A stretch of 63,326 nt of DNA, counting the filler, from Euprymna scolopes (taxonomy: Eukaryota): NCBI GenBank assembly GCA_053919585.1. It is 3 parts of 3 records of this genome, joined end to end, with 100 filler letters (N's around TTAATTAATTAA, not from the genome) between each part and the next. Parts side by side here need not be neighbours in the genome. Positions count along the whole stretch, not along the records: positions 1 to 31,912 come from CM132801.1; positions 32,013 to 57,713 come from CM132819.1; positions 57,814 to 63,326 come from CM132790.1. One strand, given 5' to 3'. Below the pieces are notes generated by a model. The model did no database searches, was not told the origin of the DNA, and was given only the letters and a program-made list of their open reading frames with translations. Position numbers and translations under genes: made by a program. Positions 4,313 through 62,967 of the stretch are shown here, one piece after another. Each line of letters starts with the position of its first letter. Within the stretch, counting starts at the first letter, position 1.

Positions 4313-4795
4313 CAAATCTTATCTTTTTTTTAATAATATTATTGGAATTCATTCCCTCTCCCTTGTATCTATTTGTGAATTATTCTACGGATTTCTGCCT
4401 TTTGGATTATTTTGGACCATCTTCCAATTACGCGATTAGCTTGGATTTTACTTGTGCGAATGGAAATTTAACCAACTTTCTTGGATTCTGCATCTTTGGA
4501 TTTCACCATCATTGGATACCTGACTATCCATTCACATGAAATCACTTTTTCTTCACCCTATTCCCTCTGCTTCACCTTTTTGTTATCAAGTAAGATCTAT
4601 GACTTACTTATTGTTTCATCAAATACTTTTGCAAGCAAAATTCGATCCCGCATTTTGCTAAATCGTACCCTCTGATGAGAAGGAAAGTATTTCTTCGAAA
4701 CTCCGCGGATTAAGGACTATCCACTTATTTAGTATTTCCTTTTCAAATTAAATATGTTTTTAACTCATTTTAAAGTGTTTTTAACATGTTTTATT
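4313..4795 (+). mobile_element. Penelope-like element terminal repeat (pLTR) fragment carrying a hammerhead
   Basis: Pyrimidine-rich segment that starts after (TA)n and contains a minimal hammerhead. Its downstream part (4715-4795) recurs at 14786-14867 in an inverted repeat. The PLE call is an inference from the minimal hammerhead plus the inverted arrangement. Confidence 0.55.
4669..4715 (+). ncRNA. type I hammerhead ribozyme (minimal, family A)
   Basis: cct-CTGATGA-gaaggaa(agta)tttcttc-GAAA-ctccgcggat-TA-agg. It has a 7-bp stem II, a palindromic TCCGCGGA stem III with one mismatch at its base, and a 3-bp stem I. Confidence 0.75.
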
Positions 4796-4996
4796 NNNNN
4801 NNNNNNNNNNNNNNNNNNNNNNNNNNNNNNNNNNNNNNNNNNNNNNNNNNNNNNNNNNNNNNNNNNNNNNNNNNNNNNNNNNNNNNNNNNNNNNNNNNNN
4901 NNNNNNNNNNNNNNNNNNNNNNNNNNNNNNNNNNNNNNNNNNNNNNNNNNNNNNNNNNNNNNNNNNNNNNNNNNNNNNNNNNNNNNNNNNNNNNNN

Positions 4997-5220
4997 TGTT
5001 TGTAAACAAACTGATGGTGTGAGCACTGTTGCGACGGGTGGGTGTGGATTTAACACATACTCGAGGAGAAATATTTGCGTCACTGATTCGTGGTCCGATG
5101 GTTTAAAACTGCCGACTGTCATTGCGACGGTTGTAGGTTTGATTCACGGCTGGGGGAAGGTGTATGTCTAGCCGCACTGATGAGTTGTGATACAACGAAA
5201 CAATACTGAATGTGGATGAC
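4997..5220 (+). mobile_element. tRNA(Asp)-related SINE-like element ending in a hammerhead (family B, copy 1)
   Basis: A-box-like TGGTCCGATGG (5091-5101), anticodon-arm-like CCGACTGTCA, B-box-like GGTTTGATTC (5136-5145), then a hammerhead and (TA)n. The 5' end is lost in a gap. Confidence 0.72.
5166..5220 (+). ncRNA. type I hammerhead ribozyme (family B)
   Basis: gtc-tag-ccgca-CTGATGA-gttgt(gat)acaac-GAAA-caatactg-aa-tgtgg-at-gac. Stem I is ccgca/tgtgg and stem II has 5 bp. The cleavage-site T is mutated to A in this copy. Confidence 0.85.
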
Positions 5221-5299
5221 TATATATATACATATGTATACTAGTAATCTTATCAATACGGTTTAAGTCAATAATACGACATAATTCGTGGAAATATTG

Positions 5300-5338
<39 letters not shown>

Positions 5339-5439
5339 TTGATGAAAAACGAAATGACTCCTATTTGAATGCTTAATTTGCATAATTGTTTTTAAACAGT
5401 TCATCTGTTTGTTCCTTCCTTAGTTAGTCCGTACGTTAT

Positions 5440-5538
5440 GCTTTGAAAAAGGCCAAATACAGATTTTGATGACAAAACTGTTTCAAAATGGCCTAATTTA
5501 TGAAATTTGGCTTTAAGAAGGCCAAACTGGCAACCCTG
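5440..5538. mobile_element. possible DNA-transposon (hAT-like) terminus
   Basis: Ends in CTGGCAACCCTG (reverse complement CAGGGTTGCCAG) after repeated aaggccaaa subterminal motifs. No partner end was found. Confidence 0.35.
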
Positions 5539-6473
5539 GACAAGAATATGAAAGTGACCATCCTTTGATGTAGCCTCGTTTTCGAATATCATTATAATTC
5601 TATATGATCATTGTTGTAATGATGTGAGAAAGGAACTCATAGTAATTTTCATGTGCAGCAGTTCTCCACTAAAGAAAGAAGTCAGTTAAATGTTACGCAA
5701 AAAAAAGGGAATATGTGAAAGAAATAGGGCAAAGAAAACAACATTGTCTACCAAGAGGTGCTGGACTGAAGGAGTAAATTTCAAGATCGTCTCATCCAAT
5801 GTGATTTTGTTATTTGTGTTGAACTATGTAGCACAATATTACTTTTTTTCAGTATTTATTAGTATTCATGAATTTATCTCATTTGGGTCAGTTCTACATT
5901 TACAGTACAATAGATACTATTTTTATAGAAATGTTAATGAACTTATATTTGCTGCATGTTATTAGTTTTTCTGTCAAAAAAAACAAACTAATTTTTTGCT
6001 CTATCCAGAAAACTATCAGCTTCATCAAAACATTTGTTGATTAAATGTATTTCTCAATCCGTGCAATTTCCACTGATCTTCCTGCTATGATTTTGTGTTA
6101 TTCATTTGTAATTCTATTTTGCTATTGTTGTTATTAATATGCAATAGTTTTGTCAATACTAACGGTAATTAATTTAAGTGATTTAATAAGAAAGGATTAC
6201 TAAAACCTTTCTTAAAATATTTGTTGATTATTAAACAGATATCGCTAGCTAGAAAACAAAGATATACCAACAAGGCATAAGCAAAAAAGAAAAACGAGAG
6301 ATAGACTAATTGCTCTCTCTCTCTCTCTCTTTCTTTTTTCTCCTTCTCCCCTCCTCCTTCTCCTCCTCCTTCTCTCTTACGTTTGGGACGCTGGATTTTC
6401 ATTTTATTGTTTTTTAAATTCAATGATTATTTTGACCACGTGACAAACGTTTGACGTTTGCGTTTAACTGTCC

Positions 6474-6560
6474 ATTTTCTCTAAGGGACTTTCGTTTTTA
6501 AATTTTCTCTAAGGGACTTTCGTTTTTAAATTTTCTCTTAGAGACTTTCGTTTTTAAATT
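6474..6560. repeat. 28-bp tandem repeat x3
   Basis: attttctctaagggactttcgtttttaa repeated three times. Confidence 0.9.
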
Positions 6561-6987
6561 CGCTCAGGCGAATTGATTTCTTCTTTTTTTTCATTTCTTT
6601 ACTGTCTAGTTTGAAAGGCAAATGAGTTTCTGTAAATATAACCAAAATAGCAATATTTATCTATTTATATGTGTAAATGTTAATAGTCGTCTATTTATAT
6701 GAAAAAAATGTTAATATATATATATGAAAAAATGTTAATATTTATATAAAAAAATACGAAAGAGTTTGTTTTATATTCGCAAGAAACGTATGAATAAAAT
6801 GTGTATTTAAAAATTTGGTTTCAAGTAGTGAATTTTATAAAACGATAACGAGATGGTTAAACATACATACATTCACACTATACACAGAATAATTTGTGTG
6901 TGTGTGTTTGTGTATAAATGTATGTATGTTTTGCTGTCTCGTTATCATGTATATGTGTGTGCATGAAGAGAGAGAGAGAGAGCGAGC

Positions 6988-7018
<31 letters not shown>

Positions 7019-7751
7019 ATAAATGCTTACATTATTATTCATTTCTTATTTATTTACGCATAAGAATATATCAATGTTTTTCGTTGCCAAACGATAGAGA
7101 GATTTCACATGAATGAACTTGCATGTTAAGACAAAGATGAATCATTTTTTGACAAAAAGCGGGGGACTTCTCGAAATATCAAAATAAAAAATAATAATTA
7201 AAAAGACAACATCGTTTTATGCTTCATATNNNNNNNNNNNNNNNNNNNNNNNNNNNNNNNNNNNNNNNNNNNNNNNNNNNNNNNNNNNNNNNNNNNNNNN
7301 NNNNNNNNNNNNNNNNNNNNNNNNNNNNNNNNNNNNNNNNNNNNNNNNNNNNNNNNNNNNNNNNNNNNNNNNNNNNNNNTACAGCTGGTTTCCTTGTTTC
7401 TTGGTTTCCATACCATGGGCATCAGGCAGTAGTTATCAACCTTTTTGTCTTGGTATATATTTTCAAAATAAAACTTTGTTCATAAATCATCGATATTTTG
7501 TTGATAAGCACTTTGTTGAAAATGAAAAACAAACAACTAGCAGTGTTTGATTTGTATAATAAACTTCTTTATGATATGTTCATCAGACATTCAGAAGGTA
7601 TAAAACGACCGACAGGTATTCAGAGTTAATGTGATCATTTTTTTTTTTTTTATATATATATATTGTTACATTTCAGAATAATTTAAAGTATATAATACTG
7701 ACAAACTGCAGATAACTTTTTCTGTTTAATGTTGGTGAGTTTGTGGTTGGG

Positions 7752-8078
7752 CTATGATTGTCTATCCACTAGAATGGCTTGAATTGCTTTGGTTAAGGTA
7801 GCAATTTCTGATAATTCAGGGCTGGAATTGGATGCGGAGACTTTAGCGGCAGGTTCGGTCATGACAGTGGTTACAGCTGATGTGTGGTGGTAATTGTCAG
7901 CAATGCGTTCGATGATAACCATTAATTGTTAATTGTGCCAGATCTGTATCCTCAATGAACATGGACACCATGTGGGATAATTGTGAAGGCAATTTCTCCA
8001 ACCAAAGCTGTTGCAGGATGCTGTTGTCCATCGTGCGTGCACTAAGCAGGCCTCGCATCTGTCTCCAAAGCTGAGAAG
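7752..8078 (-). mobile_element. Ty3/gypsy gag-like pseudogene fragment
   Basis: Minus strand reads SQLWRQMRGLLSARTMDNSILQQLWLEKLPSQLSHMVSMFIEDTDLAQL..., then after a frameshift ..IERIAD. This matches the PSQLxRxMxxL...LxxLWLxxLP...LxxxADxI pattern of invertebrate gypsy Gag proteins. Confidence 0.7.
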
Positions 8079-8237
8079 AATTTGGTGAGTTTGGGAGCTG
8101 GAGATCATGGACAACTCAAAAGCACTGGAATACTTGAAGAGAGTGATCTGCAACATGATCATTTGTGCCAGATCAAAAAATTTAGAAATCTTAACTGCAG
8201 CTTAATGCTTCTTGAGTACCTTGAAGGCCATGAGATG

Positions 8238-10070
8238 TTTTTTTTTTTATTATTACATTTTCACCCCAAACAAGGCACATTGCCACTGTGGTGTAAGGGG
8301 CTACTATCAGGAACATAAGCTACTGGGATACTATGTAGGGAGTTGGGCAACAAGATGTCGGTTCACGTTACACTTGAACTTCTGCATGTCAGTACAGTTG
8401 GGGAAGCAAGAACCCGGAAGGGAATCCCAAAGTCTAGCGGTTCTGGGGAAGAATCTACTGGAGTAGAAAGCTCTCTTACATCTAGGGATCTCTACTGTGT
8501 AGGGGTGGGATTTAGCTGCTTGCCGGGTTTGTCGGGGGTATTTAGGTCGTGGGGGCACAAGTGCTTCCAGTTTGTCAGAGCATTCACCATTAAAATACTT
8601 GTACAACAGGCAGAGGCTGAAGCTTAGATGACATTTCAGGACCTATCAAGTTGGAGATTCTCTTTTGAACCTTGTCTAGGAGCGAGAGACTAGTAGCAGA
8701 TGCACCAGCCCAAATATGACAACAATACTCCATACATGGGCGAATGGTGGCCTTATAGAGGTACAGGATACTTTCGGGCGTTAGTAGTTTTCTAGCATGA
8801 TAGAGAGAGCCTACTTTCCTCGCAGCGGTCCTGGCAATGCTCTCAATGTAATTGCTCCAACTCATATTTCCTGTGAACGTTAGGCCGAAGAGTTGAAAAG
8901 AAGTACTTTCAGATAATGAATCTTTGGCCATTACTATTGGTGGTAGAGAAGGTTTCTTGTAATTATTGAAGGAAACAAGTTTAGTCTTGGCAGCATTGAA
9001 TGTGACCGTCCATTTTTGTCTCCATTCCACTACAGATTGGAGGTTATCCTCTAGTGTTTCTGCCATTTTCTCCGATATGTATTCATTTGTTTTCTTGTCA
9101 TGCCTGTTATAGAGCGTGGTGTCATAAGCATATATACCCATCTCAGAGGCAGTTTTGTCGGGAGGTCATTTATGAATATTAGAAATAATAAAGGTCCAAG
9201 GATAGACTCCTGAGGCATTCCCGCATTTATATCATATTGTTTAGATGTACGACCATTGAGGACAACCTGAATTTTTCTCTTATCTAAGAAGGATTTAATT
9301 ATGTTAAGTATTCTTCCAGTAATACCGTATGATCTAATTTTCCTGAGAAGACCTTCATACCATGCTCTGTCAAAAGCCTTAGATATATATAGAGCTGCCG
9401 CTCTACCCTGCCCTGCTTTGTCCAGTGAATGCTATATACGTTCTGAGATTACAGTTAGGATATCTGCTGTAGAACGTTCTTGCCTAAATCCATATTGTTG
9501 TTTGGTCAGAAGTTTAGCATCTGTAAGGGGATGGACTAGAGCTTGATTAATTATTGACTCAAATATTTTGGCGAAAAGTGGGAGGAGACTAATGGGGTTA
9601 TAATTTAATGGGTCAGTTCTTTCGCCAGAATTCTTGAATACTGGTACCACAGAAGCAGTTTTCCAGCAGTCCGAAAAGCAAGATTAAGGCATTTGTTGTA
9701 AAGTTTGGAGAGAACTGGAGCTACTTGGGTGGAGCATTTTTTTAATAGCACAGCCGGGATGAGATCAGGTCTACATGCTTTTGAAGTGTCAAGGTTTTTT
9801 ATGATAGCATGCACCTGAGAAGGGGTGATTTTCAGACCGTCTAGCGTGGCGTCTGTCTGCAAAGGAAAGTCAGGTAGGGGGTGGTTAGCAGGGTTCAGTG
9901 TGGAATTGGAGGCAAACAGACTGGCGAGCATGTTAGCCTTCTTGGTTGCTGAGCAAACAACCTCATGATTGTTGGACAGTGGGGGAATTGTTGATTTCCC
10001 ATTATTTACTACACTGTTGTAGATTTTCCAGAAGTCACGGGTTCTTAATTTTTGTGCTTCAAAGCGTTTT
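8238..10070 (-). mobile_element. 5'-truncated CR1/Jockey-group LINE, degenerate reverse transcriptase through the 3' tail
   Basis: Frameshifted ORFs contain VPVFK..DPLNYNPISLL, QYGFR, PQESILGPLLFLIFINDLP, YAYD (decayed YADD), FNAAKT, IRPCMEYCCHIW and FFPRTARLWDSLP. An A-rich tail lies at ~8238-8255 on the minus strand. Confidence 0.93.
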
Positions 10071-10299
10071 TTGGTTTATATATTATTCCTTAATTGGAAT
10101 TCATTTTTTGAGATGAGCATTATATATATTAATTTATTTTTATTTCGGACTATTATTCTCATCTTTATTAGTTGTTGTTTTTCATCTTTTATTGGTTTTT
10201 TGGTTGTTTCAGTAAATTCTCTATGCTATTTCTTTCTTACAGTTACTGCTAGCTTCTATATACTTCTGTCTGTTTGAACTGGACTTATGTAGTTAAATC

Positions 10300-11383
10300 T
10301 GCAGTATGCATGCTGCCTTTGCGCAATTGCTGTTGCACAAGTAGAAGTAAACCATTGGGGAGAGTGGGGCTTACTATAAAATTTCCGCATAGGAACATGT
10401 GCTTCAATTGCCGTTTTGAACCATGTAAGCTAGAGAATTGCAATGGAGATGTAGAAGCAGTGGCTAGCAGGAAGAATCATAGCACACATTCCATATCCAC
10501 ACAACAAAATTTGTTGAGAAGCTGCAAAACAAGTTGTAACACGATCCAGGCAAGACAATTCAGATGTTGGCAAAAGAGATGGGCATCAAACTGGCAACCA
10601 TGAAGAAAATGCTGAATGAGGATTTTCACTATTCATCATGCAAGAATCACAAGGGTTAGCTACTCACCACCAAGGCTCAAGAGAACTCTAATGTAATCTA
10701 AGAGACTCCACAACAACAAGGTCAAAAATCTAGTCAAGACAGAATACTCTGGTTCTTTTAAGATGAAGATGGGGACTAGTTGCACAACGTGCAGAATGAC
10801 AAGTAACAAACCTATAGTGTGCATCTAGCTCTGCCCTTCATGAAAACCAAGTTTATTTCAAGCCAAAGCCATATGATCACATATCCTTGAAAGAGGGCTT
10901 GTACTCAATTCTGATAACTATATTAAATTGCTGTCCACTGTTGTCAAGCACTTCACAGAAAGGGTGCTGCAGGGAAGCCATACATGCAACAGCAGAATTT
11001 AGTTTGGTCTCTAGGAACATCTGTCTATGAATTCTCACAACTTTACCATTTTAAACATTTGACTCTCCATCTAACCTAATTGCAACCGTAAGGACTACTA
11101 TTTGTGAGGTGCAATTGAGAATGACACAAACCTTTGCCTAGATTGTGCTGGTATTCAAAGGTTTCACAAAGGGTCCCATGAAAGCTGTAAGCTCCAGATT
11201 CAGATACCATCTGAAGACCGTTGCAGAGGTTCAAGACAGTTTCTTCACGTAAGTACTATTTGGTTCTAAATAAAGTCCTCTAAAAGAACGCATTGTGAAA
11301 TTTTGAGAATACATCAATTATTGGCCAAGATATGACGTTTTATTTTCTATCCAAAAATGTCAAATTTTTCCTAAGCATCTGTA
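10300..11383 (+). mobile_element. degenerate maT/DD37D-like (Tc1/mariner superfamily) transposon
   Basis: Broken frames give DPGKTIQMLAKEMG, LWFF*DE, HNVQND, MKTKF, LNSDNYIKLLSTVVK, PNCNRKDYYL*GAIENDTN (WPPxSPDxNPxDYxxW-like) and SSRFRYHLKTVAE. The element ends in ...catctgTA. The 5' boundary is approximate. Confidence 0.78.
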
Positions 11384-11401
11384 TATGTTGTTGAACATCC
11401 A

Positions 11402-11888
11402 TCTATAATATAAATCTCACCTGTCTGTTTAAATATCTGTATGTATTTATGTATGTATGTATGTATGTATGTATGTATGTATATATGTTTACCTAAAACT
11501 TTTGACAGAGGCGACGGATTTTCACGACGGATATTGTTTTGAAACCGACCCTTCGGACGACAAATATCGAAAAATTGGCTAAAAACATTAATTCCTTCAC
11601 TCTCAACGGGGCACTTTTCTACAAGGAGGGGTCGCTTTTTTTGCGGATATTTTCGAAAGTAATCCCCTCTTTTCGATTGACTAACCTTAATTTAAACATT
11701 CGCAACTTCCAGTTTGGCGATGGACGCAACAGCAAAGACGTCACGTTTTTTTTCACATTCTTTTCCTCCTTCATGGTAAGAGTTCGAGCCTGCCTGCCTG
11801 CCTGCCTGCCTGCTACCACTTTTTTCCCCCTTTGTTTTTTGCTCAACACACACCTCCAAACACCCGGGCAACGCCGGCACCCAGCTAG
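11402..11888 (+). mobile_element. non-autonomous Helitron-type repeat, family H1
   Basis: 5' a|TCtataatataaatctcac, internal (atgt)n and (gcct)n, subterminal hairpin cccgggcaacgccgg and CTAG end. Homologous copies at 24531, 25076 and 58273. Confidence 0.78.
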
Positions 11889-12809
11889 GCTAATCATATA
11901 ATAGAAATTCTCGATCCTCATCTGAAAAATTCCGAAACACTATTATATTTTTATAGTTAAGCGTTTGTTGTCTTTCTTTGAAACACAGCAGCAATATAGA
12001 ACAATGTTTCTAAATCCGTGGTTATCTTTGAATCTTTCTGCCACCTCGCCATCCCCTCATGCCAAACTACTGGTCTAAGTCATTGAACGTTTATTAAAAC
12101 TGACGATATAAATATGATACTTCTTGCAAAAGATTCATTGTAGATAAATGTAATATACAAATTTCGCTATAGCCGCGGGGCTATGTCAGTTCTTACCTTT
12201 CTTATTAGTTCATTAGAAGACGTTACATATTTGACCTTGGGTTACACATTCTACAGACTATATTGATTAGTAGCATACCCACAAAACCCATCTCCGACCC
12301 GGCTGTTTATTAAAGAGTATGTCTGCGAAATATTAGCAGAGAAATCTGGTGATGTTTAGTCAAATCTGACAATGGTTTACTGCAATCTTTGACACGTCGC
12401 ACTCTATGGCAACGGGAGACCAAAACGAGCCATATATATAACTTTCCTCTTATGAGACTCAGATGAGAGAGCGGGCGGAGGAGGGGAATACGTATCTAAT
12501 GAAATGGGAAAATTTATGATAATATTCACAAAATCGCCAAGATGAAAGTAAATAGAATTCGTGATTGGAAAAAGGAGACATCATACTTGAGCTTTTAACT
12601 TTTCGGACTTTACGAGGCAATATTTGCTAAATACTTGTATTAATGATATTGATGTTTATATAATATTTTAGCATTTCATATTTTTGGGCAAATTTTTGTT
12701 TTACAATAAGATATTTGTTGAAATCTGTAGTTCAAATACATTTTATGACAAAAAATAGTTCAGTTTTGTTAGATAAACCTTATAAAATTATGAATTTTCT
12801 GAAATACAG

Positions 12810-12860
<51 letters not shown>

Positions 12861-12865
<5 letters not shown>

Positions 12866-13114
12866 ATCCCACATACAATACTGTTTTGCAGCTCATCAGT
12901 ATGGCTAGACAAGCAACTACCTCAAGCCAGGATCGAAACCCGATCATCCAAATGACAGTCGGAGCTTCTAACTATTGCACTATATGGCTGCTGCTATGAG
13001 GGCTGTGAATTAACAATGTTTTGACATTGTCCTAAGTACCTAAGCTCAATTTGTTTACACAAAGAGTATTGCTTCATACGCTAATGGTAATTTGTATATC
13101 ACTTCCCAAATGCT

Positions 13115-39040: not shown

Positions 39041-39310
39041 ATATCAGATATTTTGTAATTCATATGCAAAACAAGGGAAACAAATGACTATGATTTAAAC
39101 AATTTATGGCTGTGAAAAAAATGCCAAAAATAGGCCCCGGATGATAGATGGACCATTAAATATCCGACCTTGAGGGCAAGTGTCACATGACCCAGTACAC
39201 AATTCACGTTATTACCTTTCTAACTAGCTTTCATGTGTTAAATTCTGATCAATAGTTGCTGAGATTTCGAAATTAAAAAGTTGCAAAAAAGCTGGTATTA
39301 ATCGTGACGC

Positions 39311-39356
39311 ACTGTACTGAAGATTCCCGAAGGATCAAACACTAGTGTCTGTAGGT
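39311..39356 (+). ncRNA. type I hammerhead-like motif (family C, copy 2)
   Basis: CTGAAGA-ttcc(cgaa)ggat-CAAA-cactagt-GTC-tgtagg. The upstream ctggtattaatcgtgac is shared with copy 1; (TA)n follows ~20 bp later. Confidence 0.62.
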
Positions 39357-39374
39357 ATTTAATTATTATAGTTG

Positions 39375-41091: not shown

Positions 41092-41136
41092 GTTATCCAC
41101 ATATCGTTTCGCTATATCAGAACCACTCATCGCAGC
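41092..41136 (-). ncRNA. highly degenerate family-B hammerhead remnant
   Basis: Reverse complement gctgcgatgagtggttctgatatagcGAAACgatatgtggataac retains the GAAAC and tgtggat(g/a)ac end of family B. Confidence 0.4.
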
Positions 41137-41184
41137 TTTCGTAGCATCCATATATAAATAACATTGACAACCACTTGACGATGC

Positions 41185-41991: not shown

Positions 41992-42260
41992 ACATTAACG
42001 TTGACACATAAGTTCTCATCAGATCATCGAAGTAAAGCAACGATGAGTCTGGTCAGTACCAAATGGTTGAGCATTTGGGTATAGCTCCCTGCTTTTCTTC
42101 GTTTTCAGTCGTCCCGAAAGTTATACTTGTCACTGATATTTAATAGTGCCGATTCAGTGTGGTTGGAGATTGTGCAACTCTTGCCACAAAAATATTATGC
42201 ACAAGTCACAGCATCAGTGAGGTCTGGTGATATATATCGGAAATGATGGACGGACACCAT
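41991..42260 (+). mobile_element. 5S rRNA-derived SINE (SINE3-type)
   Basis: gttctcatcagatcatcgaagtaaagcaacgatgagtctggtcagtacc head; body cttgtcactgatattt...gagattgtgcaactcttgccacaaaa shared with 14172-14403; flanked by TA/TG tracts. Confidence 0.75.
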
Positions 42261-43480
42261 ATACATATATATATATATATACATATATATATTATATACA
42301 AACATGCACACGCATATATATATTTCTATGCATATATATTAAAATATAATATCTGATCTAAGACTGCTTATTTAATTTGATAGCTTTATGAAGTGACTCA
42401 ATCATTGGCATGGAGGAGTGCATGTTTCATAACTTTAGTAATGTCCACATTTCAGAAGATTCATTTTTGTAGTTCTATATAGCTAAAAAGAATATTCCAA
42501 AATGAATCCGGATAAAATATGAAGTGACAAAATGTAGTCATGTCTCATTCATTCCTCTATAATCTGATGCATTAGTGCAATGGGTACTACAACAGTGTCA
42601 GGCCAGTGTAGCCTTCGTATATGCTGAGGTATTTACTTATAGTACTTTCCTTCAATTAGTACTAAAACTTGGTTAGAACGCAATGCTTAAATATAATTAA
42701 AAAAATAAAAAAAATAAATTTAGAACACTTATTTTTTTAATAAAAAATCACAAAAATGCCACTCGGATAATGATGAAAATAACAGATTCAAATTTATAAG
42801 AGGCATCCGAAATATATCAAGATATTTATTCACATTATAATCGCATTTCTACGTTTTCGTACAGTTTGATGAAACAGAGAGGGAATTCCAAAAGACAAGC
42901 GATCCAAGGAAAGAAACTATTATAATGAAAAATTTTCGATATAGGGCTGACTGGTGTATTTACGCTCAGGGGTGGAGACAAGAATAGTACGTTCATCGAA
43001 GCAAATGTGGAAGTATTCGCAGAACCCTAAAGCAGGTGTCACACACTTTATGGGAGAAAAATACAGGTGAAAAAGACTTGCAGAAGGGAGAAAAAATATA
43101 CATCCTAGAAACGGTTGAAATCTAAAATTCATCATGATCATTAGTCATTCGATGGATCTGACGAAGCGAAAAGTCATACTCATGTAGATGTTTATCTCAA
43201 AGTGTATAGGCAAGTTTTGATTGGAATATGAGGGAAACATTAAATGGATTGTACACCTTTATTATCTCGTATTTATTTATTCGGTACAATGCTCTCTTTA
43301 TATTCCGCCATTTTATAGTTCATTTCTTTCTTTTCTCAATTTGTTCCTACGTCATGCACATTCGAATATGTTCTCTATGAATTATAACATTTTTATATTG
43401 AAAGTAAAGAATGACAATAACCTAATAAAAATTATAATATATATGTGCGTGAGTATAGTGTCATAATATGCGTGTGTCCG

Positions 43481-45100
43481 TTAGTGTGTATGTGTGCGTG
43501 TGTTCATTAGTGTGTATGTGGTGCGTGTGTTAATTAGTGTGTATGTGGTGCGTGTGCACATTAGTGTGTGTGTGCATGTGACCATTAGTGTGTGTGTGTG
43601 CCCATTAGTGTGTGTGTGTGTGCGCGCGCTTGTGACCATTAGTGTGTGCGCGCCTGTGACCATTAGTGTGCGTGTGTGTGCGCGCCTGTGACCATTAGTG
43701 TGTGTGTGTGCGCCTGTGACCATTAGTGTGTGTATGTGTGCTTGTGACCATTAGTGTGTGTATGTGTGCTTGTGACCATTAGTGTGTGTATGTGTGTGCT
43801 TGTGACCATTAGTGTGTGTGGGTGTGTGCTTGTGACCATTAGTGTGTGTGTGTGTGTGCTTGTGACCATTAGTGGATGTGTGTGTGGGTGTGTGTGTGCT
43901 TGTGACCATTAGTGGGTGTGTGTGTGTGCTTGTGACCATTAGTGGGTGTGTGTGTGTGTGCTTGTGACCATTAGTGTGTGTGTGTGTGTGCTTGTGACCA
44001 TTAGTGGGTGTGTGTGGGTGTGCTTGTGACCATTAGTGTGTGTGTGTGTGTGTGTGTGCTTGTGACCATTAGTGGGTGTGTGTGGGTGTGCTTGTGACCA
44101 TTAGTGTGTGTGTGTGCGCTTGTGACCATTAGTGTGTGTGTGTGTGCTTGTGACCATTAGTGTGTGTGTGTGTGTGCTTGTGACCATTAGTGGGTGTGTG
44201 TGTGCTTGTGACCATTAGTGGGTGTGTGTGTGCTTGTGACCATTAGTGGGTGTGTGTGTGTGCTTGTGACCATTAGTGTGTGTGTGTGTGTGCTTGTGAC
44301 CATTAGTGTGTGTGTGTGTGTGTGTGTGCTTGTTACCATTAGTGGGTGTGTGTGTGTGTGTGCTTGTGACCATTAGTGTATGTGTGCTTGTGAATATTAG
44401 TGTGTGTGTGTGCTTGTGACCATTAGTGTGTGTGTGCTTGTGATCATTAGTATGTGTGTGCTTGTGATCATTAGTGTGTGTGCTTGTGATCATTAGTNNN
44501 NNNNNNNNNNNNNNNNNNNNNNNNNNNNNNNNNNNNNNNNNNNNNNNNNNNNNNNNNNNNNNNNNNNNNNNNNNNNNNNNNNNNNNNNNNNNNNNNNNNN
44601 NNNNNNNNNNNNNNNNNNNNNNNNNNNNNNNGTGTGTGCTTGTGACCATTAGTGTGTGTGTGTGTGTGCTTGTGACCATTAGTGTGTGTGTGTGTGCTTG
44701 TGACCATTAGTGTGTGTGTGTGTGTGTGCTTGTGACCATTAGTGTGTGTGTGTGCTTGTGACCATTAGTGTGTGTGTGTGTGTGCTTGTGACGATTAGTG
44801 TGTGTGTGTGTGTGCTTGTGACCATTAGTGTGTGTGTGCTTGTGCTTGTGACCATTAGTGTGTGTGTGCTTGTGACGATTAGTGTGTGTGTGTGTGTGCT
44901 TATGACCATTAGTGTGTGTGTGGGTGTGCTTGTGACCATTAGCGTGTGTGTGTGTGCTTGTGACCATTAGCGTGTGTGTGTGTGCTTGTGACCATTAGCG
45001 TGTGTGTGTGTGTGCTTGTGACCATTAGCGTGTGTGTGTGTGTGCTTGTGACCATTAGTGTGTGTGTGTGTGCTTGTGACCATTGGTGTGTGTGTGTGCG
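43481..45100. repeat. minisatellite: constant GCTTGTGACCATTA core plus variable-length (GT)n
   Basis: Dozens of copies spanning an N gap; the ends are degenerate. Confidence 0.97.
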
Positions 45101-49907: not shown

Positions 49908-49963
<56 letters not shown>

Positions 49964-50169
49964 TTTGGTGCCAAAATTTCGACTTTAAGTTGAACGCCAA
50001 CAACAAAAAAATACATTTTTGCACCAAACTAATATACCATAAGTCAATATACGTATATCTGCCTACGAGCATGAGTAAATCGTATAAAGTTTAAATTCAA
50101 ATAGAAAGTGCCCCAAAAATATTCAAGATTTTGTTTAAGAAAAAGTAATATTTTTTTTTAGATTAACTA

Positions 50170-50520: not shown

Positions 50521-50902
50521 AATTAAAGTAGAAAAAATAATAGAATAGAAACCGCCATTTTATCCGTAGCCGTAAGACTCCGACCACACACGAATTTTAA
50601 ATTGTTTTGTTTTTTAACTTTCATCTTTTTAGTATTTATTTACCAGTTTTTAATACGGACTTTATCTTTTGAAATGAAAAGTGCATAAAGAATAAAAAAA
50701 TATATAGACATGAAAGATTATTCAACAATTCTTTTTTCAAGTTGCCTGTATAATACAAATATTCGTAAAGGGCCATCTTTATAGTATGTAGCGACTTCTT
50801 TCAGTTATTCTGTTTTACGGCATATCGACCCTTTTTGAATGTTTAATGCCACATCTGTATTATCGTAAAAGTTCCTACGCTACATTTTCAAATATTTCTT
50901 GT

Positions 50903-50942
<40 letters not shown>

Positions 50943-53900: not shown

Positions 53901-56134
53901 TTTAGAAAAAAAAAATAAAATGTGAACCGTACAATATTATCGAAAACAATATCAATGAAAATTATTATTTTGTTAAATATATATATATGTCATATAAAAC
54001 GTGGCAAAAATCTAACGATGTACACGTTAAAAAAGAATAGAATAAACGACAACAGTTATACGGAAACCAGAAATTCTAAAAATGGAGATATTAGTGAAAA
54101 TTAGTATTTCACCGTGTACTGATTAAGGCTTCTTCGGGAGTCACTCTTATAAATGTAAACCGATATATCGATTTCGCAATAAAATCCATCGTGTTTATGT
54201 TTTGTGTTCTTATAGATGTCTTTATTGATGCATTGATATTTTTAGTTTTGCCGAGACACTTATCGAAAAGAATATGTTTCAGTATAATAGACAATAAGCA
54301 ATCTATTCCATATTGATCGTTTCACTTTCCACTCTTATCTTTCTTTCCTTATCAAGTTTTGATACGATTTGGGGATGTCTATTTTTTTTTTCTAAGCAGA
54401 AATATATTTTTATGGATTAAATTTTATAATTAGATTATTTTGATATAATTGACAAACTTTCATTTTATTTTGTACCGTCTTAGCTTTTTTTCTTTTTTTT
54501 TAAATAAATTCAATATAAATAGCAAATAAACAAAAAAATCACAATCATCCAAAATAAAGTTTAACCGAGTATACGTGTCAAGGGATAAATTTTGGTATAA
54601 TTTTTCAGGTAATAATAATCTAATTCTAAGTATATAACTTATAATCCATATCTTTATTGTAAATCGATTACAATGCTAAAACGAATAGATTTCGGCTAAA
54701 GTATACCGATTAATAATTTATTACCATGGGCTTTGGAATTTACCCTTTCTAAGTAAATAGACACTTGATATCGACAGATACATTGCATATACAAAGGAAA
54801 ATAAGACAAACTACAACTGAATAACAAACAATTTATTATAAACCCTTTTAAAATGATTATATAAAATATCAAAATACTGTTTGAGTGCTGCTCGCTATTA
54901 GTATATAAAAGAGTATTTCAAAACATTGTGTATTATTGAGTTACATAAAATTTAATACTAATATGGGCGTGATGAAAGAAATATCTTTGCGTGTATATAT
55001 ATGTGTGTGTGTAAGTTCAAGTATATTGAATAAATGAGCATATTTTAATTATTTCATATTTTTTTAATAATTCTCATTTGTGCTCAATACACGTATGGAG
55101 CTCTTATAAATTATATAAACATTATAACGCGTAAAACTTATACATACCCACACCTATACTTATACTGATTCCGTAAGTGTATCTTCATTTATGTGCGAAT
55201 TGTTCTCATAATACAACTAGCATATAAATCTTGAGTTCAGACAGTGCAAACAAACGTTCTTGTAAATAGTCCCTGTTAGACCAGTGCAATCACATTATAA
55301 TGGTTGTGAAGCTGCAAGTTACCATGGAAATTGTAAATCCTTGTCTATTTTCTATTTATAGAACACAATACCAAATGCATTTCCTGCCAGGCAATTGAAA
55401 TCTTGAAGCTCTGAAGATGTCGTCAAAGATTGCGACAATGTAAATTGGAGAATGCGTCGAGAACAGCGTTATTGATTTTCGTTGACATATACAAAGATTC
55501 GACGACAGATGCAGAGGACAAAGACACATACCAATGCATAGGTATCGATAGGTAGTGTGATTCTATACATTTAAATTGTGTTGCCATTTCTTGTGTACCT
55601 GTGTGTAGGTTTCCCATCTATGGGCGACTTTTACATTAACTTTTCTTTGTAAACGAAGATTTATTGACATGAAAAATCAACATGAAACATTACGATTTTT
55701 TAAACAAAATCTTGGAAAACATTTAAATTCGAAATTAAAATCACCCGAAATACACTGCATTTTCATCGGAACAAGTCAACCATTTTAATGTTTTATCAAT
55801 AGTAAAACAAAACAAAAAAAAATTCCTATTTGAGAACCTTAGAAAATGGCAAGCAATTTCATAGCATTTACACTTTAACATTCTTAGCAAATGCTCATCT
55901 ATTAAAAGACAAAGAGTTCGACGTCATTTCTATCCAATCATTGTATAAAAGTATTTTTAATTGGAGTTATTACGCAACAATAGTTTATAAATATAGCTAC
56001 GCTTTAGTTTTTCTTTAAATATTTTAGTTTTTATCATTTGGACATCCTTAAATATTGCATTAACAATAAAAAAAAAATCCCTATCAAAATCCCACAATAA
56101 AATCGCGTCTAACTATAACAATTATAATTTTCCC

Positions 56135-56275
56135 TTCTTATCCTGCGTACCTAAAAGTGAACATACTTCTATTGAAAGTTTTTTTTTACTAGAATTACGC
56201 GTCTTTAGAACACAATATAACGAGGCTGCTTCCCAGCTAACTACAACAATTGTTTTCAATTTCAATGTTAAATTC
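56135..56275 (+). mobile_element. CR1/Jockey-group LINE 3' remnant
   Basis: tttactagaattacgcgtctttagaac...ggctgcttcccagctaactacaac..ttcaatgttaa is similar to 20150-20245. Confidence 0.55.
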
Positions 56276-57713
56276 TTAAACAGTCTTAACTAATCAAACA
56301 CTGCCTAATTTTTAATCAGCGTTGTAAATAAACTTATCCTCGAGTGGTCCCTTTGCCATGATAAGTGATAATTTTATTAATAAATGATAACAATGAACTT
56401 CAATATTCATAAATGCATAGAGTTCAAGAACATGCACGCACGAGATGTTTTTTGTTAATACGTAGATTAAAATATTACCATAACATTAATAGCGTTGCTA
56501 CAATTTTCAGCTAATTTCAAGTGGCATTAAACTCATTTCTATATAATATTTAAACCGACATTTAAATTTTAAGAAACATCCAGAGTACTGCTTCATGCAT
56601 CAATTCCGAAGAACTCCATATTTTGTACTTTCCCTTTGCGACATCATAGAGTTAAAGGTACTTAACACATGTTCTAAAAGTCAACGACCACGAGTTATAT
56701 ATAGTTCAGAACAGTGCAGAAGTATTGCGCTTCGTTGAGGCTTTCAGGCAACCTTAGAAGGGATGGTTTCTGTTGCACTATATTTCTACCCTTAAATTCG
56801 AGGACTATTATACCGATTAGAATTTAATAGGAAACAAAGTATAAGAAATTGTGCAATTTTGCATTTACATTAGTTAAGAGAGAATGTAAGAGACTAGGAC
56901 ATTCCCGTGCCCCTCATTTGGGAGGCCAGATTCACATTATAAACGTACGTTGTTTCTGCCTCTGTTAATCCTGAGAGGCATATTATATATATATATATAT
57001 ATATATATAATGCCCTCATCCTAAAATAAAGGTGTAATATATGTTCTATCAGATGATAAACCCCTATAGACTGAGACAACTTTAACTTTTTCTCCAAATC
57101 AAGACCACCTTCCTTAGAAGTTAAATGTTCTCACATTAAAACTAACTTTGTTTAACTTTGCACTAGTGGGGTGTGTGGGGGTATGTAAAAGGCAAATATT
57201 GAAAAGTTCAATAAAATTAAGTTTGGAGATTAAAAAAAATGTTGAATAGATTTGACCGTAGTGTCTATACTACAAAATGGGAAAATTTAATCGATGATTA
57301 AAAAGTTACACATCTGCACAAGAGGCGAGGGCCGATCAAAGTAAGTAACATTTTAATGGGAAAACAACAATCTTTAGATAAATTCTTACAAATATGTGTA
57401 ATTCAGTCAAAATTACATCACGCATTACACACACGCCGAATTAGACCCATGCACGCATTACATCGATTATCTTTGTTACAATATACTCGGATTTTTTTAA
57501 ATTATTAAATATTAAAAACCTTTGAAAATCAAGATGACACCAATCGTATTTATGAAAGTTTATCAAATGTACCGCACTGATATTTAATCCACGATTATCG
57601 CTATTGCCAGGAAATAGATATAAAGTGCCGAGTTAATATTGGTATAAAAATCGGATAGAATATCAACACTTAATTCGGTTTGAGTCAGATATATGATTTA
57701 ATATACTGTTTTG

Positions 57714-57813
57714 NNNNNNNNNNNNNNNNNNNNNNNNNNNNNNNNNNNNNNNNNNNNTTAATTAATTAANNNNNNNNNNNNNNNNNNNNNNNNNNNNNNN
57801 NNNNNNNNNNNNN
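57714..57813. other. artificial contig-joining spacer N44-TTAATTAATTAA-N44
   Basis: Same 100-bp construct as 31913-32012. Confidence 0.93.
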
Positions 57814-58272
57814 TTGAAATAGTATAAAAAGAAATAAAGCTGACAAGAAAAATGGCGCGCAAAAATTCTGAGAAAGCGACTAAGATTTATGAGAAAGATA
57901 TATATTTATGAAGTAATTAGACCCAATATAATAAGCAAATAATAAGTGACGAATTAATTTTATATATTTTATATACAAAATCCTCAAGGTTGCTGATGTT
58001 TCAAATGAAATAGGATAACTCGTTGATTTGAAAGTTGTGCCCAATTCATCAATAAAACTATTATGCTAGAAGGCATTAGCAAAGAGAATGTTAATCTTTA
58101 TTGAGCAATTTCATGAGATAATTGAACATCGAAACTAAATAATCAAGATCTTCATACTGTAGTATCATATTCTATCTCATAGAAAACATCACATAGCATT
58201 TTTTAATGAATGGTTAGTAGTTACTTGTTTCATTTGTACTTGTATTTATTTTTGATTATAATATATTACATA

Positions 58273-58704
58273 CTAGCCTGGCTGTCCAGCGTTGCCCGGG
58301 TGTTTGGAAGTGTGTGTTGAGTAAAAAAAAGTGGTAGTAGGCAGGCAGGCAGGCAGGCTCGAACCCGTGACGCGAAAGTAAAAAAGAAAGTGAAAGAAAA
58401 TCTGGCGTCGTAGCCGATTTCTCCATGATGCGATCAGATGTCAAACGCGTTGAAATTAACGAAGTCAATCCAACGGTGACGATGACTTGCTTCAATGTCG
58501 GCGACAAAAATCGACCACATTCTTGTATAAAACGGCCGAGTTTAGGGTGAAGGAGTCAATGTTTTTGGCAAATTTTTCGATAGTTTTCGTCAATATTGTA
58601 TCGATCTTGTTAATATCTGCCGCCGCGATCGAAAGTTTTTACAAGACATGCAAACATGCATGCATGCATACATTTAAACAGACAGGTGAGATTTATATAA
58701 TAGA
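58273..58704 (-). mobile_element. non-autonomous Helitron-type repeat H1
   Basis: Reverse complement starts a|TCtattatataaatctcacctgtctgtttaaatg and ends cccgggcaacgctggacagccaggCTAG|t. Confidence 0.78.
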
Positions 58705-58780
58705 TTTGTGAAACCTAAGAATTATTTTTTTATAATACATACATCCATAATACCAACACACACACACACTCACACACACA

Positions 58781-58839
<59 letters not shown>

Positions 58840-59410
58840 GCATGTATATATAATATCACTTCTTCTACGTCCCTTATAATATTAACAACAAAATATAAAA
58901 CTCTTCTACGATTGCAAAAAAATGTATTCTTCATGTTTCCATAGAGATTATTTCCAAATATTATTTACCATTTACTTCCTCATATGTAGCCTTTTTATAA
59001 TACTGTTAAAATCCTACTCACAATCACATTGACTCTTATTTCCGAGTAGCATTTGGTGATGGCACATTAGTATAAAAATCTTATATGTACTATGCCTTTT
59101 TTATTAACTACATAGACGTGATGTAGGATTAGACAAATGAATGGAATAATAATTAGTCATCGAGATTCTAACTAAAGGTTGATGTTTTTCAAAACCGAAT
59201 TAATTTATAGAGTCCACATCATTAATGTTCTTGTTCATTCATTAATCCCACACCATCTTTCATCTAAGACAATCTAAGAAAAAATATGCCGTACTGTTTT
59301 GGTGTGTTACTGTGATTAGCACATATAAAACATGTTTTATATATAATATTATTATATATATAATTCAGAAACAAAAACTTGCTGTTTCAATATTTAGAAA
59401 AAATCACCTA

Positions 59411-60320
59411 TGAGGGGCATGCAATAAGTAAGGCCTCTGACCAACTCTCAGTTGTCTGATCTAGCTGAAATTTTGCATCTGCAATGATTTATATATCTAC
59501 GGGTTATGTGGCAAATTACAGCTTTTAACTACTTGTGGTTTCTGTTTTACAGGTGTTTGAACTGAGTCAGGTGTGAAATGGAGCCTGTTGAATGTCGAAC
59601 AATGATCCGTTTTTATATTTGAAAGAATGCACATTGATGAAATGAAAGAACCTTATGGACCCATCATATGACCTTGTTAACGCTGGCATCGTGAATTTAA
59701 ACATGGCCGGAAGTCTGTGGAAACAGCTCCCAGACCTGGTCGCCCCCCTTCCGTCATTGATGAGGCATCTGTCCGTCAAGTTGAGGCTACCATTTTGGAA
59801 GATCAGCGCATTACTATTCCCCAAATAGCCCAAGATGTCAAGATAATTACAGGGTGTGTGGAAACTATGATTCATGACCATAAGGTGTCTGGCAGATTGA
59901 TTCCCAGGTTGCTCACACCATTCCAGAAGCGAGAACGCGTCGAGCGCTTAAGGATGAATTTGGAGATGTGCCAAGAAGATCAGTCAAAGTTTTTCAAAAG
60001 ACTGATTACACAGGATGAAACCTGGGTCCATCTCTATGATCCAAAGACCAAAGCCCAGTCAATGCAGTGGAAGTGGAAACTTGGACTCACCACCTCCAAA
60101 GAAGGCAAGGGTGCAGCCCTCCGCTGGCAAGGTCATGCTCACAGTCTTCTGGGACCAGGACGGAGTAGCGTGACAGATTTCCACAATTACAGGGGCCTAT
60201 TATGCTTCACTTTTGATGAAATTAAGGGAAGCTATCAAAATCAAGAGGCGAGGCATGATCAGCAAAGCTACCCTCCTCCTGCAGGACAACGCTCCAGTCC
60301 ACAACTCGCATGTCGCCAGA
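59411..60320 (+). mobile_element. 3'-truncated mariner (DD34D-type) transposon pseudogene
   Basis: 5' end TA|tgaggggcatgcaataagt; ATG at 59578; PRPGRP, LIPRLLT (WVPxxL-like), ITQDETWVHLYDPKTKAQSMQW, PSAGKVMLTVFWD and LLLQDNAPVH, with frameshifts. The third catalytic D is missing. Confidence 0.93.
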
Positions 60321-60329
60321 TCTTTGTGA

Positions 60330-60825
60330 CATATTTACATTCTATGGAGGTCAGGCGCGACCGAACACTCCATAATTTTATTATACAATATTTCTTCAAA
60401 CTGAAACATAATTATCAAAGTATACTTACGCAAACAGATATGAAAAGTCTTTGTTAAAGTTTGTGCCATGTTTCCATGGAGTACAGACGCGAACGCAGAC
60501 CCCACAATTGTATTATATCACCCCTATTTAAGTTAAAACATACTTTTCAAAGTATTCTTATGTACATCTATATCAAAAACCCTTGCAAACGTCTTTTTTT
60601 CATTTTTTATTTCCATACTTTGGGGGCCAGGCGCAAACGAAGACCCCAAAATTTTTATGAACCACTGTTCTGCCAGATAAAAACATAACCATTCCTGATC
60701 CTCGATACATCTTCTATCATAATATGTAATCAGTTTTTTTAAAATAGTCACCCACATAGGAGCCTATTCATGACCAGACACACACACACACGCACACAGA
60801 CACACGTTCAGCTTTATATTATAAA
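60330..60825 (-). mobile_element. Helitron-like repeat with three ~130-bp subrepeats
   Basis: g(g/a)cgc(g/a)a(c/a)cg.a(c/g)ac.cc...att motif at ~60350, ~60485 and ~60628; (CA)n and ctttatattata at the far end, as in family H2. Confidence 0.45.
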
Positions 60826-61060
60826 CTAGCGGGGGTACCCGGCGATGCCCGGGTGTCTTGAGGTAAATCAAAACTCCGGGAGAGGGGGGGGGTTAAATAA
60901 TAAAAAAAATGTTTTGGTAGGTTAGTATGAGGATCGAACCCGAACCCTTGAGGCAAAGTTGGAAATTAAAGTGCGAAAAAAAAACTAGGCGACGTTAACC
61001 ATTGAGCAACCGCGACATACAACAGAGATACGTTTGAATTTATTCATTTAACTATTAAAA
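60826..61060 (-). mobile_element. Helitron-type 3' end with a tRNA-like segment
   Basis: a|CTAGcgggggtacccggcgatgcccgggtg (same type of end as 25661); minus strand has ggttgctcaatggttaacg...gggttcgatcc A/B-box-like motifs. Confidence 0.55.
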
Positions 61061-61839
61061 ACAGGTGTCCGCAATAAAAGTTAATTCTGCTGCTTCCATT
61101 TGACCTAATTAAGAAGGTCAAATAGAAGTCACGCAGCGTTTGGGTTTGTTTACCACAATTTAACTGTTTTTTCACCCCACAGATGTTGGAGAAGGGGAAA
61201 CCAGCTCCAAATTGTCAAGATTGAATAGCAAATGTCTGATATACAACATTAGTCAAAGCTGATTTCTTCTGAACGTTTCCCGGCGTGATGCCTGGAAGGC
61301 TGTTAACTTGGAATTAGTTTCGCTTTTTATACGAAAAAAACGAATCAACACGTGAGAAGCCAAAATAGCAATAATTTTGTAAAAGTCGACGCAAATAAAT
61401 CTATACGCTACACGCGTTCCCAAATCGTAGATATTATTATATAGGGAGTATATAAACAGTTCTAAGCGATAGTAACGACAACGGGAGCGAGTGCGAAAGA
61501 AGCCTTTGTAGGTGTGTGTATGGGAGGGATAAGTAATAACCCTGAAACGATGTTAAAAAAATCGGAAAAACCAAAACAAAAAAAAACAGCGAAGAAAAAA
61601 ACCGCTGTGTGTATAGGGAGGGGAAAGTAAGCTAAAGAATAAGCGCAGTAAAAAAAAAGAAAGAAACGTTACTCGCGTGTCTAAAGATGTAAAAGAAAAA
61701 AAAGTTTTGGTCGTGAGGCTGGATTCCGGAAGCCTTGACGCGGAGGTGAAACAAACTCCAACCACTTAACCGTTTAGGCTAACAGTAAGAGGAATTGATT
61801 ATAGTGTTAAAATAAGGTCTATCAGTAAAAAAAAATTAA

Positions 61840-62269
61840 CCCTCACACAAGCTAAACTATGAATGTGAGTGAAAGAGGTTTGATTGGCAGATAGCCACTA
61901 AATGAGGTCATCGCGGGAGCGTTACGAGATGACGTAGCAAAATTACGTATTTCGTTTCCTGTCTAGACATCTCTCTCTATCTGTCTCTCTCTCTTTCTCT
62001 CTCTCTCTCTATTTGCGTTTGTGTATGTCTCTCTCTCTCACTTCGTCTTCCTTACTCTAAAGAGTGTTACTAAAAAAGAAAATGGCGTCTGGCTGTTTTT
62101 TTTTTGTAAAAACTTCGATCATTAATATTTTTTGTAAGCGTATTTTTGTTACTTCACATTTTTGCTTGTTATTTTTCATTTAACTATCGTATTTAACTAT
62201 TTTTAACGTGCTAATAACTTTGGTAAGGTTGTCATAGCGTAGAAGTTCATAGTTTAGCTTGTGTGAGGG
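61840..62269. mobile_element. piggyBac-type MITE (430 bp)
   Basis: Perfect 24-bp TIRs CCCTCACACAAGCTAAACTATGAA and TTAA target duplication at 61836-61839 and 62270-62273. Confidence 0.9.
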
Positions 62270-62479
62270 TTAAGTTTTTTATCGATAACAACAATGTTTT
62301 TTAAATTCAGACTGCCATTCCAGCTTGCTGACGTCAAGATCACGTGACATGACTCAGCGGGTTTTAAATACAAGTTGCCCCAAAATAAACGGCCCCTTGT
62401 ATACTTTATGTAGAAGAGTTGGCGCCCGTATTTTGGGGGGGCAGTTATAAATCGATTTAAAAATATGTAATGTTTAACA

Positions 62480-62690
62480 TTAAAATGTCACTTTTTTGCC
62501 CCCCCCCCTGCAGAAAATAGATCAGTTGCGACACTTCTGATGGTCCTTATGGACCAATTTTTCGATATGTGTCGTCCGGAGGGTGGTGCTTTCATATGAT
62601 ACCAAGTTTGTGAATTTTTGTTCCGTCGGTCAAAAGTTTTTAGCAGACACACAGACATACATACATACAATTTCGCTTATATATATATAG
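62480..62690 (-). mobile_element. diverged H1-related Helitron-type 5' fragment
   Basis: Reverse complement has (atgt)n, ctaaaaacttttgac, cggacgacacatatcgaaaaattgg, as in H1. Confidence 0.6.
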
Positions 62691-62774
62691 ATGAATGGAA
62701 ATGTATAAAAAAGAATACGAAAAGTATAAAAGCTTATAATTTTCTTTATTCGTTTTCAATTGGTGACGTAGAGG

Positions 62775-62900
62775 AATACAAAATAATATTATGAAAAAGA
62801 AATTGACCTCTGCGGTCTCTACCAAATTACTCAGAGAATTTCTGGTCCAAACATTTGAAATTTGACAGAAAGGGTATTCAGAGATAGGGCAAGCTTTTTT
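62775..62900 (+). mobile_element. H2 internal subrepeat fragment
   Basis: Reverse complement of the 21240-21350 type unit (aagcttgccctat...aaatttcaaatgttt.gacc...ggtagagaccgcagagg). Confidence 0.7.
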
Positions 62901-62904
62901 ATTT

Positions 62905-62967
62905 GCGCATAAGCCTGAGGAGTCCTAGAGTGGATGAAACGCGGAATATTCAGTGTAGCTTAATCGC
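62905..62967 (+). ncRNA. type I hammerhead ribozyme with intact core (family D)
   Basis: gcg-ca-taagc-CTGAGGA-gtcc(tagagt)ggat-GAAA-cgcggaatattcagt-GTA-gctta-at-cgc. It has a perfect 5-bp stem I plus extension, a 4-bp stem II, a near-palindromic stem III and a GUA cleavage triplet; a short TA run follows. Confidence 0.88.

Follow-up and report, generated by a model that had tools for sequence, protein, structure and literature searches.

How did several hammerhead ribozyme families come to lie beside (TA)n tracts in one stretch of Euprymna scolopes DNA, and what happens to their transcripts? The window analyzed here is a 63,326-nucleotide stretch of repeat-rich animal DNA (34% G+C; GenBank assembly GCA_053919585.1) made of three assembly pieces, whose N-spacer-N breaks we confirmed at positions 31913–32012 and 57714–57813. 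Our analysis points to four unrelated families of type I hammerheads (A to D) that abut (TA)n, likely as non-coding passengers of Penelope-like elements (PLEs), with the predicted cut site of family D likely edited in RNA. The four families are additions to a known class, as hammerheads of TA-targeting PLEs have already been published; the new element is an RNA-level A>G change at the predicted cut site of D. Neither this change nor a transfer RNA (tRNA)-like segment in family B figured in an earlier note on the window. Family-level evidence comes from one set of DNA contigs, of which about 71% was read, and from RNA of two studies in three libraries, of which 4–13% was read; the latter are fragmented polyA libraries, with read strand deduced from the library convention. 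Read-level checks cover families A, B, and D.

The best-preserved ribozyme belongs to family D. It folds with a 5-bp stem I, a 4-bp stem II, and an 18-nt near-palindromic stem III, whose one mismatch is where the family varies (62943 G>A, 62952 A>T). The core elements CUGAnGA, GAAA, and UH are present in type I order in the D and A copies. The hammerhead of A has a 3-bp stem I, a 7-bp stem II, and an 8-nt palindrome in stem III; its helix is flawed by a C·U mismatch at 15.2–16.2, beside A15.1–U16.1, and its core is intact. The 21 variants of A found among the 40 of 153 listed spare positions 4666–4728 entirely (p about 0.03). In family B, the copy with its core at 5177 carries U16.1>A and the copy at 12899 (minus strand) is missing stem II; the family majority restores the core, with G at 5203 in 92–98% and T at 5209 in 93–97% of reads or contig depth. 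The B palindrome, ACAGTACTGT, occurs in no window copy and is a reconstruction, yet it matches the family majority. For family C, the core is recovered only by comparing two mutated copies, which are 84% identical, bear core mutations at different places (39317, and 14577 on the minus strand), and share a U·U at the base of stem II.

The earlier note had listed eight such sites, and six of these are core-mutated, truncated, or barely recognizable. Its statements that every site has type I order and that each of the three assembly pieces holds a site both stand. Palindromic stems III were found exactly as described for A (4700–4711), C (39339–39348 and 14545–14554), and D (62939–62956), with B the exception. 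The assignment of a site at 41092 to family B is doubtful: it retains weak similarity to B, but it lies on the minus strand, has lost C3–U4 and stem III, and is missed by the B profile at E 1. A search of the window with nhmmer for further copies of A–D returned none beyond those in Table 1. The stems III of A, C, and D are predicted to form self-duplexes at −13 to −16 kcal/mol, as against 0 to −2.4 kcal/mol for the monomer hairpins, a difference that fits action as dimers.

Table 1 Hammerhead-bearing repeats and related features of the window
Feature	Position	Strand	Remarks
Family A repeat copy	4400..4795	+	5' limit not determined, 3' end lost in N gap; read/contig depth deepest on A
Family A type I hammerhead	4669..4715	+	predicted cut after 4712
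Family A 3' fragments, fold-back	14682..15028	.	arms 14678–14775 and 14786–14883; between two TA tracts; no ribozyme
Family B copy	4997..5222	+	tRNA-like segment about 5085–5150, hammerhead 5172–5215, predicted cut after 5210, then TA
Family B unit	12862..13116	-	between two TA tracts; tRNA-like segment 12925–12989; hammerhead without stem II
Family B copy	13166..13406	+	head to head with 12862..13116 around (TA)24; hammerhead collapsed, cut by (TA)30
Possible family B remnant	41092..41137	-	no working core; blastn E 0.02–0.1
Family C hammerhead copy	14535..14602	-	GGAA instead of GAAA; exact palindrome of 10 nt; N gap on 3' side; (TA)26 47 nt upstream
Family C hammerhead copy	39292..39358	+	G12>C; exact palindrome; 17 nt to downstream TA tract
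Family D repeat copy	62905..63090	+	hammerhead, about 130 nt tail, then (TA)20; from depth profile and loose ends
Family D intact type I hammerhead	62910..62962	+	only strict three-helix pass; predicted cut after A62957
Four strand-specific RNA-enriched A>G sites	62948..62963	+	62948 stem III center; 62957 N17; 62962 and 62963 stem I end

That the genome holds many ribozyme-bearing repeats, as the earlier note proposed, is borne out by families A, B, and D, which are high-copy in both DNA and RNA. Specifically, 4400–5300 is covered by 33,385 contigs from DNA and, in each polyA run, by about 5,600 reads, and 56,068 contigs align on 62700–63090, the latter including a ribozyme-free 149-bp repeat; depth summed over repeats in this way does not equal copy number. 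Family RNA is abundant in the polyA runs on both strands. The copies end in TA: loose ends of A continue for about 12 nt beyond 4795 and then become (TA)n, in B the reads pass into the repeat tract some 12 nt past the cut site, and D copies run into (TA)n near 62990 or near 63090, with TA after 63072 in loose ends. D is closed, just before its TA tract, by a long imperfect hairpin (63025–63094, about −19 kcal/mol). Tandem and inverted truncated copies in (TA)n, the layout of PLE-type insertion, are present. The head-to-head B pair is 76% identical over 225 nt, 13 contigs carry head-to-head joints of D (62904/62910), and single tandem joints occur in contigs for A (4795>4441, in one contig), B, and D; intact head-to-tail hammerhead units are not found in the window.

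These features resemble the hammerheads of PLEs, which are minimal, palindromic, of dimer type, and present as many heterogeneous families per genome (PMC4209133). Like the motifs described by Cervera and De la Pena in 2014, those of the window are of type I with a palindromic helix III and predicted dimers, and they occur mostly as single truncated copies, with opposite-strand pairs 100–700 bp apart; they differ in having stems III of 10–18 nt, compared with the 2–4 nt loops of most metazoan motifs, and in that no PLE open reading frame was found beside any window copy among the 150 longest of 218 frames (PMC4209133). Insertion into (TA)n, with tandem or inverted truncated copies, is shared with the endonuclease-bearing (EN+) PLE clades Hydra, Neptune, and Naiad of Craig et al. 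(2021); Hydra-clade PLEs combine hammerheads with (TA)n insertion, and a TA bias was hypothesized for Neptune (PMC8557442). Hydra and canonical PLEs bear hammerheads, as the window families do, whereas Naiads are described without canonical ones (PMC8557442). Non-LTR (long terminal repeat) retrozymes, held to be non-autonomous PLE derivatives (PMC7229834; bioRxiv 10.64898/2026.07.22.740005), offer the second likeness: units of a few hundred nucleotides that contain a hammerhead of type I, are non-coding, and are abundant in RNA (Cervera and De la Pena 2020; Li et al. 2026). Unlike these, the copies in the window stand alone or are inverted and form no intact head-to-tail dimers.

The passengers are likely retrozyme-like units or truncated ends of TA-targeting Penelope-like retroelements. 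Folding and published work suggest that a tandem or read-through transcript would be cut by paired ribozymes, with their palindromic stems III annealed. The released unit would then undergo reverse transcription and insertion into (TA)n by a PLE reverse transcriptase with a GIY-YIG endonuclease, presumably supplied in trans and probably by several PLE families. Insertion would leave the truncated, inverted, and tandem copies observed here, which decay. Several results weigh against this account. Family C rests on its two window copies, outside the read-level checks. The lowest-energy fold predicted for D is an inactive hairpin (−16.9 kcal/mol) that sequesters the core, versus −8.8 for the ribozyme fold. 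RNA ends do not pile up at the predicted cut sites, a weak test in fragmented polyA libraries. Finally, none of the 150 longest frames encodes a PLE reverse transcriptase or GIY-YIG domain; their only coding matches are a LINE-type reverse transcriptase plus endonuclease and a mariner domain.

An antisense RNA excess was considered as a sign of cleavage, with ratios of 1.8–7.9 fold for A and 0.4–3.5 fold for B, and was dropped because a ribozyme-free repeat reaches 1.5–1.6 and D only 0.7–0.8.

The alternative that survives best, which we regard as possible though less probable than the passenger account, is that A, C, and D never moved as small units in their own right and are just the pseudo-LTR ends of autonomous PLEs truncated at the 5' side. 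In having a long stem II and a short stem I, A resembles PLE minimal hammerheads, most of which are single motifs from truncated PLEs (PMC4209133), and D starts abruptly at the ribozyme. Against it, the tandem joints seen in contigs contain no coding sequence, and B carries a tRNA-like segment. The two readings overlap.

Family D shows an additional signal in RNA. At four of its adenosines, 31–51% of ribozyme-strand reads in the three libraries carry G, compared with 0–5% of opposite-strand reads and 0.1–3% of DNA contigs. At 62957, the N17 nucleotide of the predicted cut site, G is present in 280/671, 237/612, and 24/77 ribozyme-strand reads, versus 13/482, 17/519, and 0/62 on the opposite strand and 0.2% in DNA. 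The corresponding values are 306/668, 261/605, and 25/70 versus 6/458, 15/487, and 1/61 (DNA 0.1%) for 62948; 266/699, 291/631, and 40/79 versus 24/520, 20/542, and 2/64 (DNA 0.4%) for 62962; and 218/700, 213/633, and 36/80 versus 16/518, 21/542, and 3/65 (DNA 3.1%) for 62963. Strand was tested for 28 of the 40 variants listed (89 in all), including all 20 listed inside D; six low-depth variants upstream of the repeats, four near-fixed ones, and two at boundaries were dropped. Among the 20 in D, the odds ratio is at least 12.6 for each of the four A>G sites and lies between 0.4 and 6.4 for the remaining 16. All four have a 5' U or A neighbor, and 62957 lies in UAG, the context that ADAR prefers. 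The pattern of an ADAR-type change, A>G on the transcribed strand only and rare in DNA, is repeated at four sites, in three libraries, and in two studies. Taken together, the reads indicate that the cut-site adenosine of D is quite probably edited from adenosine to inosine (A-to-I) in a large share of transcripts. ADAR would likely act on D RNA in the form of a fold-back, of an imperfect hairpin, or of a sense–antisense duplex.

The competing explanation is that the G reads stem from strong sense transcription of one or a few genomic copies that have diverged. Other D variants are mildly sense-skewed (odds ratio 2–6), several of them not A>G, which suggests that one or a few loci provide a good part of the sense reads; by a hand estimate, such a subset could give roughly 10–45% of them. 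Some G is present in DNA contigs at each site, and two low-depth variants outside D (62724 G>A and 62733 C>T) are strand-skewed and DNA-rare, yet not A>G. Three observations argue the other way. All four extreme variants in D are transcribed-strand A>G with a 5' U or A; in the two bulk libraries, some 100 different read starts support each site; and adjacent sites differ in frequency (291/631 vs 213/633, p 7e-6), with a rank that changes between libraries, which suits partial editing, unlike one fixed haplotype. We therefore consider divergent copies an unlikely source, although the skewed variants count on their side and further points also weigh against editing. DNA and RNA come from different samples or individuals, with reads pooling many copies, and the comparison draws on 40 of 89 variants. 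Edited N17 is not enriched among surviving transcripts (31–42%, vs 31–51% at the neighboring sites), and in one library 391/671 ribozyme-strand reads are unedited at N17 yet uncut. No strand-specific A>G was seen at N17 of A or B among the 40 of 153 variants listed.

If the D adenosine is edited, cleavage would be expected to slow. Inosine at the cleavage-site position of the engineered hammerhead HR-F39 lowers the rate about 30-fold, and the final extent of cleavage is little changed (0.76 vs 0.87) (PMC3923133). HR-F39 is artificial and trans-acting with a UAA triplet, whereas D is a natural cis motif with GUA, predicted from sequence. N17 editing is most likely a by-product of general repeat editing. 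Only tentatively, and with doubt, can it be proposed that ADAR acts as an off-switch that shields D-bearing host transcripts or throttles release of the mobile unit. Were editing to gate cleavage, two RNA-processing systems would be joined, a link for which the literature searched (subscription journals excluded) holds no precedent among natural hammerheads, and an animal genome would contain a natural editing-controlled ribozyme; as a by-product, the signal would be ordinary repeat editing. D could bear on whether dispersed animal hammerheads cut in vivo and on how hosts tolerate thousands of them inside transcripts. The same search gave no paper in which a natural hammerhead undergoes A-to-I editing. 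An edited cleavage triplet was reportedly noted in 2010 in expressed sequence tags of a human intronic hammerhead. For non-LTR retrozymes, editing figures in PMC7229834 only as one potential source of heterogeneous sequences.

Two side observations concern the D locus. An opposite-strand joint at 62956/62977, one base before the predicted cut, occurs only in RNA, with 40, 26, and 1 reads as against 0 contigs; it may be an artefact of the libraries, reflect a fold-back locus, or be a copying trace left from a cleaved end. Upstream, a complex repeat with 149-bp units (about 12 units at 20866–22960), very abundant in DNA and RNA, has a fragment at 62794–62902 that abuts D. We considered and rejected a link between this repeat and D, as depth falls between the two and reads of the repeat leave at 62899, which marks a separate family.

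The window contains 27 tracts of (TA)6 or longer, and the earlier note placed its hammerheads in or near TA. This holds for seven of the eight sites, which lie within 130 nt of such a tract, compared with 12.7% of random positions within 150 nt; with the inverted B pair merged, the count is 6/7 (binomial p 3e-5, for sites and a threshold not chosen blind). The motif of A, at 353 nt from the nearest long tract, departs from it. Among other repeat segments, 5/19 lie within 150 nt of (TA)6+, including two of three 5S-derived copies, so the association of hammerheads with TA is strong but not exclusive. Conversely, 10/27 long tracts have hammerhead-family sequence no more than 150 nt away, as would arise equally well if the elements inserted into tracts already present.

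The earlier note also raised the idea that one shared, TA-preferring reverse transcriptase moves all four families and that this activity may be tied to the abundance of (TA)n; read causally, it would have built the (TA)n load of the genome. All families do touch TA tracts, and the proportion of tracts near them could be read in its favor. We nevertheless find it improbable: no similarity was seen among the four family ends, whereas the 3' end of a non-autonomous PLE is generally similar to that of its own autonomous family (PMC8557442), and ribozyme-free 5S-derived copies sit in TA too. With four unrelated ends and no PLE frame among the 150 longest of 218, a single enzyme is unsupported; we infer several putative PLE partners as mobilizers. 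What stands of the proposal of ribozyme-bearing mobile elements is the high copy number of A, B, and D, their TA-anchored ends, and their inverted and tandem layouts, all as published for such elements.

The strict descriptor and its variants were compared with 200 local dinucleotide shuffles. With a palindromic stem III, it matches two sites (4672 and 62915) versus 0.005 per shuffle, an excess over the kind of shuffled control named in the earlier note; allowing one core mismatch gives three sites versus 0.03, and omitting the palindrome gives five versus 0.9. Only D (62915) passes the strict three-helix descriptor. Rfam scans of the window and three sub-regions returned no hammerhead at threshold (best Hammerhead_3, E 0.016, 5162–5206), their output being microsatellite-driven microRNA matches and weak 5S matches. 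The notion that such motifs arose by chance in AT-rich repeat DNA, for which the failure of most window copies under the strict descriptor, the missing Rfam match, and the loose-descriptor background speak, is largely refuted and very improbable, since observed counts exceed those of 199/200 (strict) and 200/200 (palindromic) shuffles, family-majority letters mend the helix and cut triplet of B, and core variation in D, among the variants listed, is confined to the free position N7.

In all three good copies of family B, the core is preceded, at a distance of about 25 nt, by a tRNA-like segment. At 12925–12989, the segment has a 5-bp anticodon arm with a GUC (Asp) loop, a B-box-like T loop, and paired ends, as judged by the general A and B box consensus. 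Loose ends upstream of the B ribozyme are B-box-like in groups of 352 and 155 contigs and in 236–294 reads per group; both the anticodon arm and the B box can be made out across the family. The formal tests weigh against a tRNA: a tRNA descriptor gives one match versus 0.15 per shuffle, a weak test in which 10/100 shuffles reach one, and neither ARAGORN (0 genes in the window) nor Rfam (window and sub-regions) calls a tRNA on the segment, which makes it a decayed tRNA derivative at best. We suggest that B carries a putative tRNA-derived RNA polymerase III (Pol III) promoter ahead of its ribozyme, the segment being observed and its activity conjectural; B would thereby bring its own promoter to the mobilization cycle. 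A Pol III or tRNA-derived promoter followed by a hammerhead is also the arrangement of Schistosoma Sm-alpha (PMC6765202, PMC2770079), but the B segment has an Asp-type anticodon loop, its promoter is putative, and its unit lies between TA tracts.

Upstream of a C hammerhead, a B-box-like motif at 14585–14629 (minus strand) suggests that C may carry a tRNA-derived segment as well. Within A, RNA reads from both bulk libraries contain short back-jumps (35–57 nt, 4546–4612) absent from all contigs; a duplication inside one expressed copy is their likely source.

A scan of viral contigs for the B core plus stem III gave 11 loci, all 11 chance-like, with no hammerhead helices and no blastn similarity to the window, and one metagenome locus (L013) proved to be a chance match inside a transposase-like open reading frame. 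On an animal-like contig, another metagenome locus (L012, 2740–2855) holds an intact-looking type I hammerhead. Its stem III is identical to that of B, an 11-nt motif that follows it also precedes the B core, and a TA run comes about 50 nt later; outside the search pattern, it shows no significant similarity to B (E 0.13 and 0.4).

Repeats of other kinds share the window. Three are derived from 5S ribosomal RNA (13464–13573, 14160–14276, and 42002–42082), with 5' ends in or beside TA and weak Rfam 5S matches for two; two of the three seem to share a longer body, and they are possibly a TA-targeted SINE3-type family. The giant squid genome is an example rich in hammerhead, tRNA-, and 5S-derived repeats (PMC6962438). 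Decayed LINE-type reverse transcriptase and endonuclease frames and a mariner-like transposase fragment occupy 8300–10600 (minus), 3649–4104 (minus), and 59681–60454. Two long minisatellite arrays span 32519–34289 (26–29 bp, purine-rich) and 43469–45099 (28–30 bp, GT-rich).

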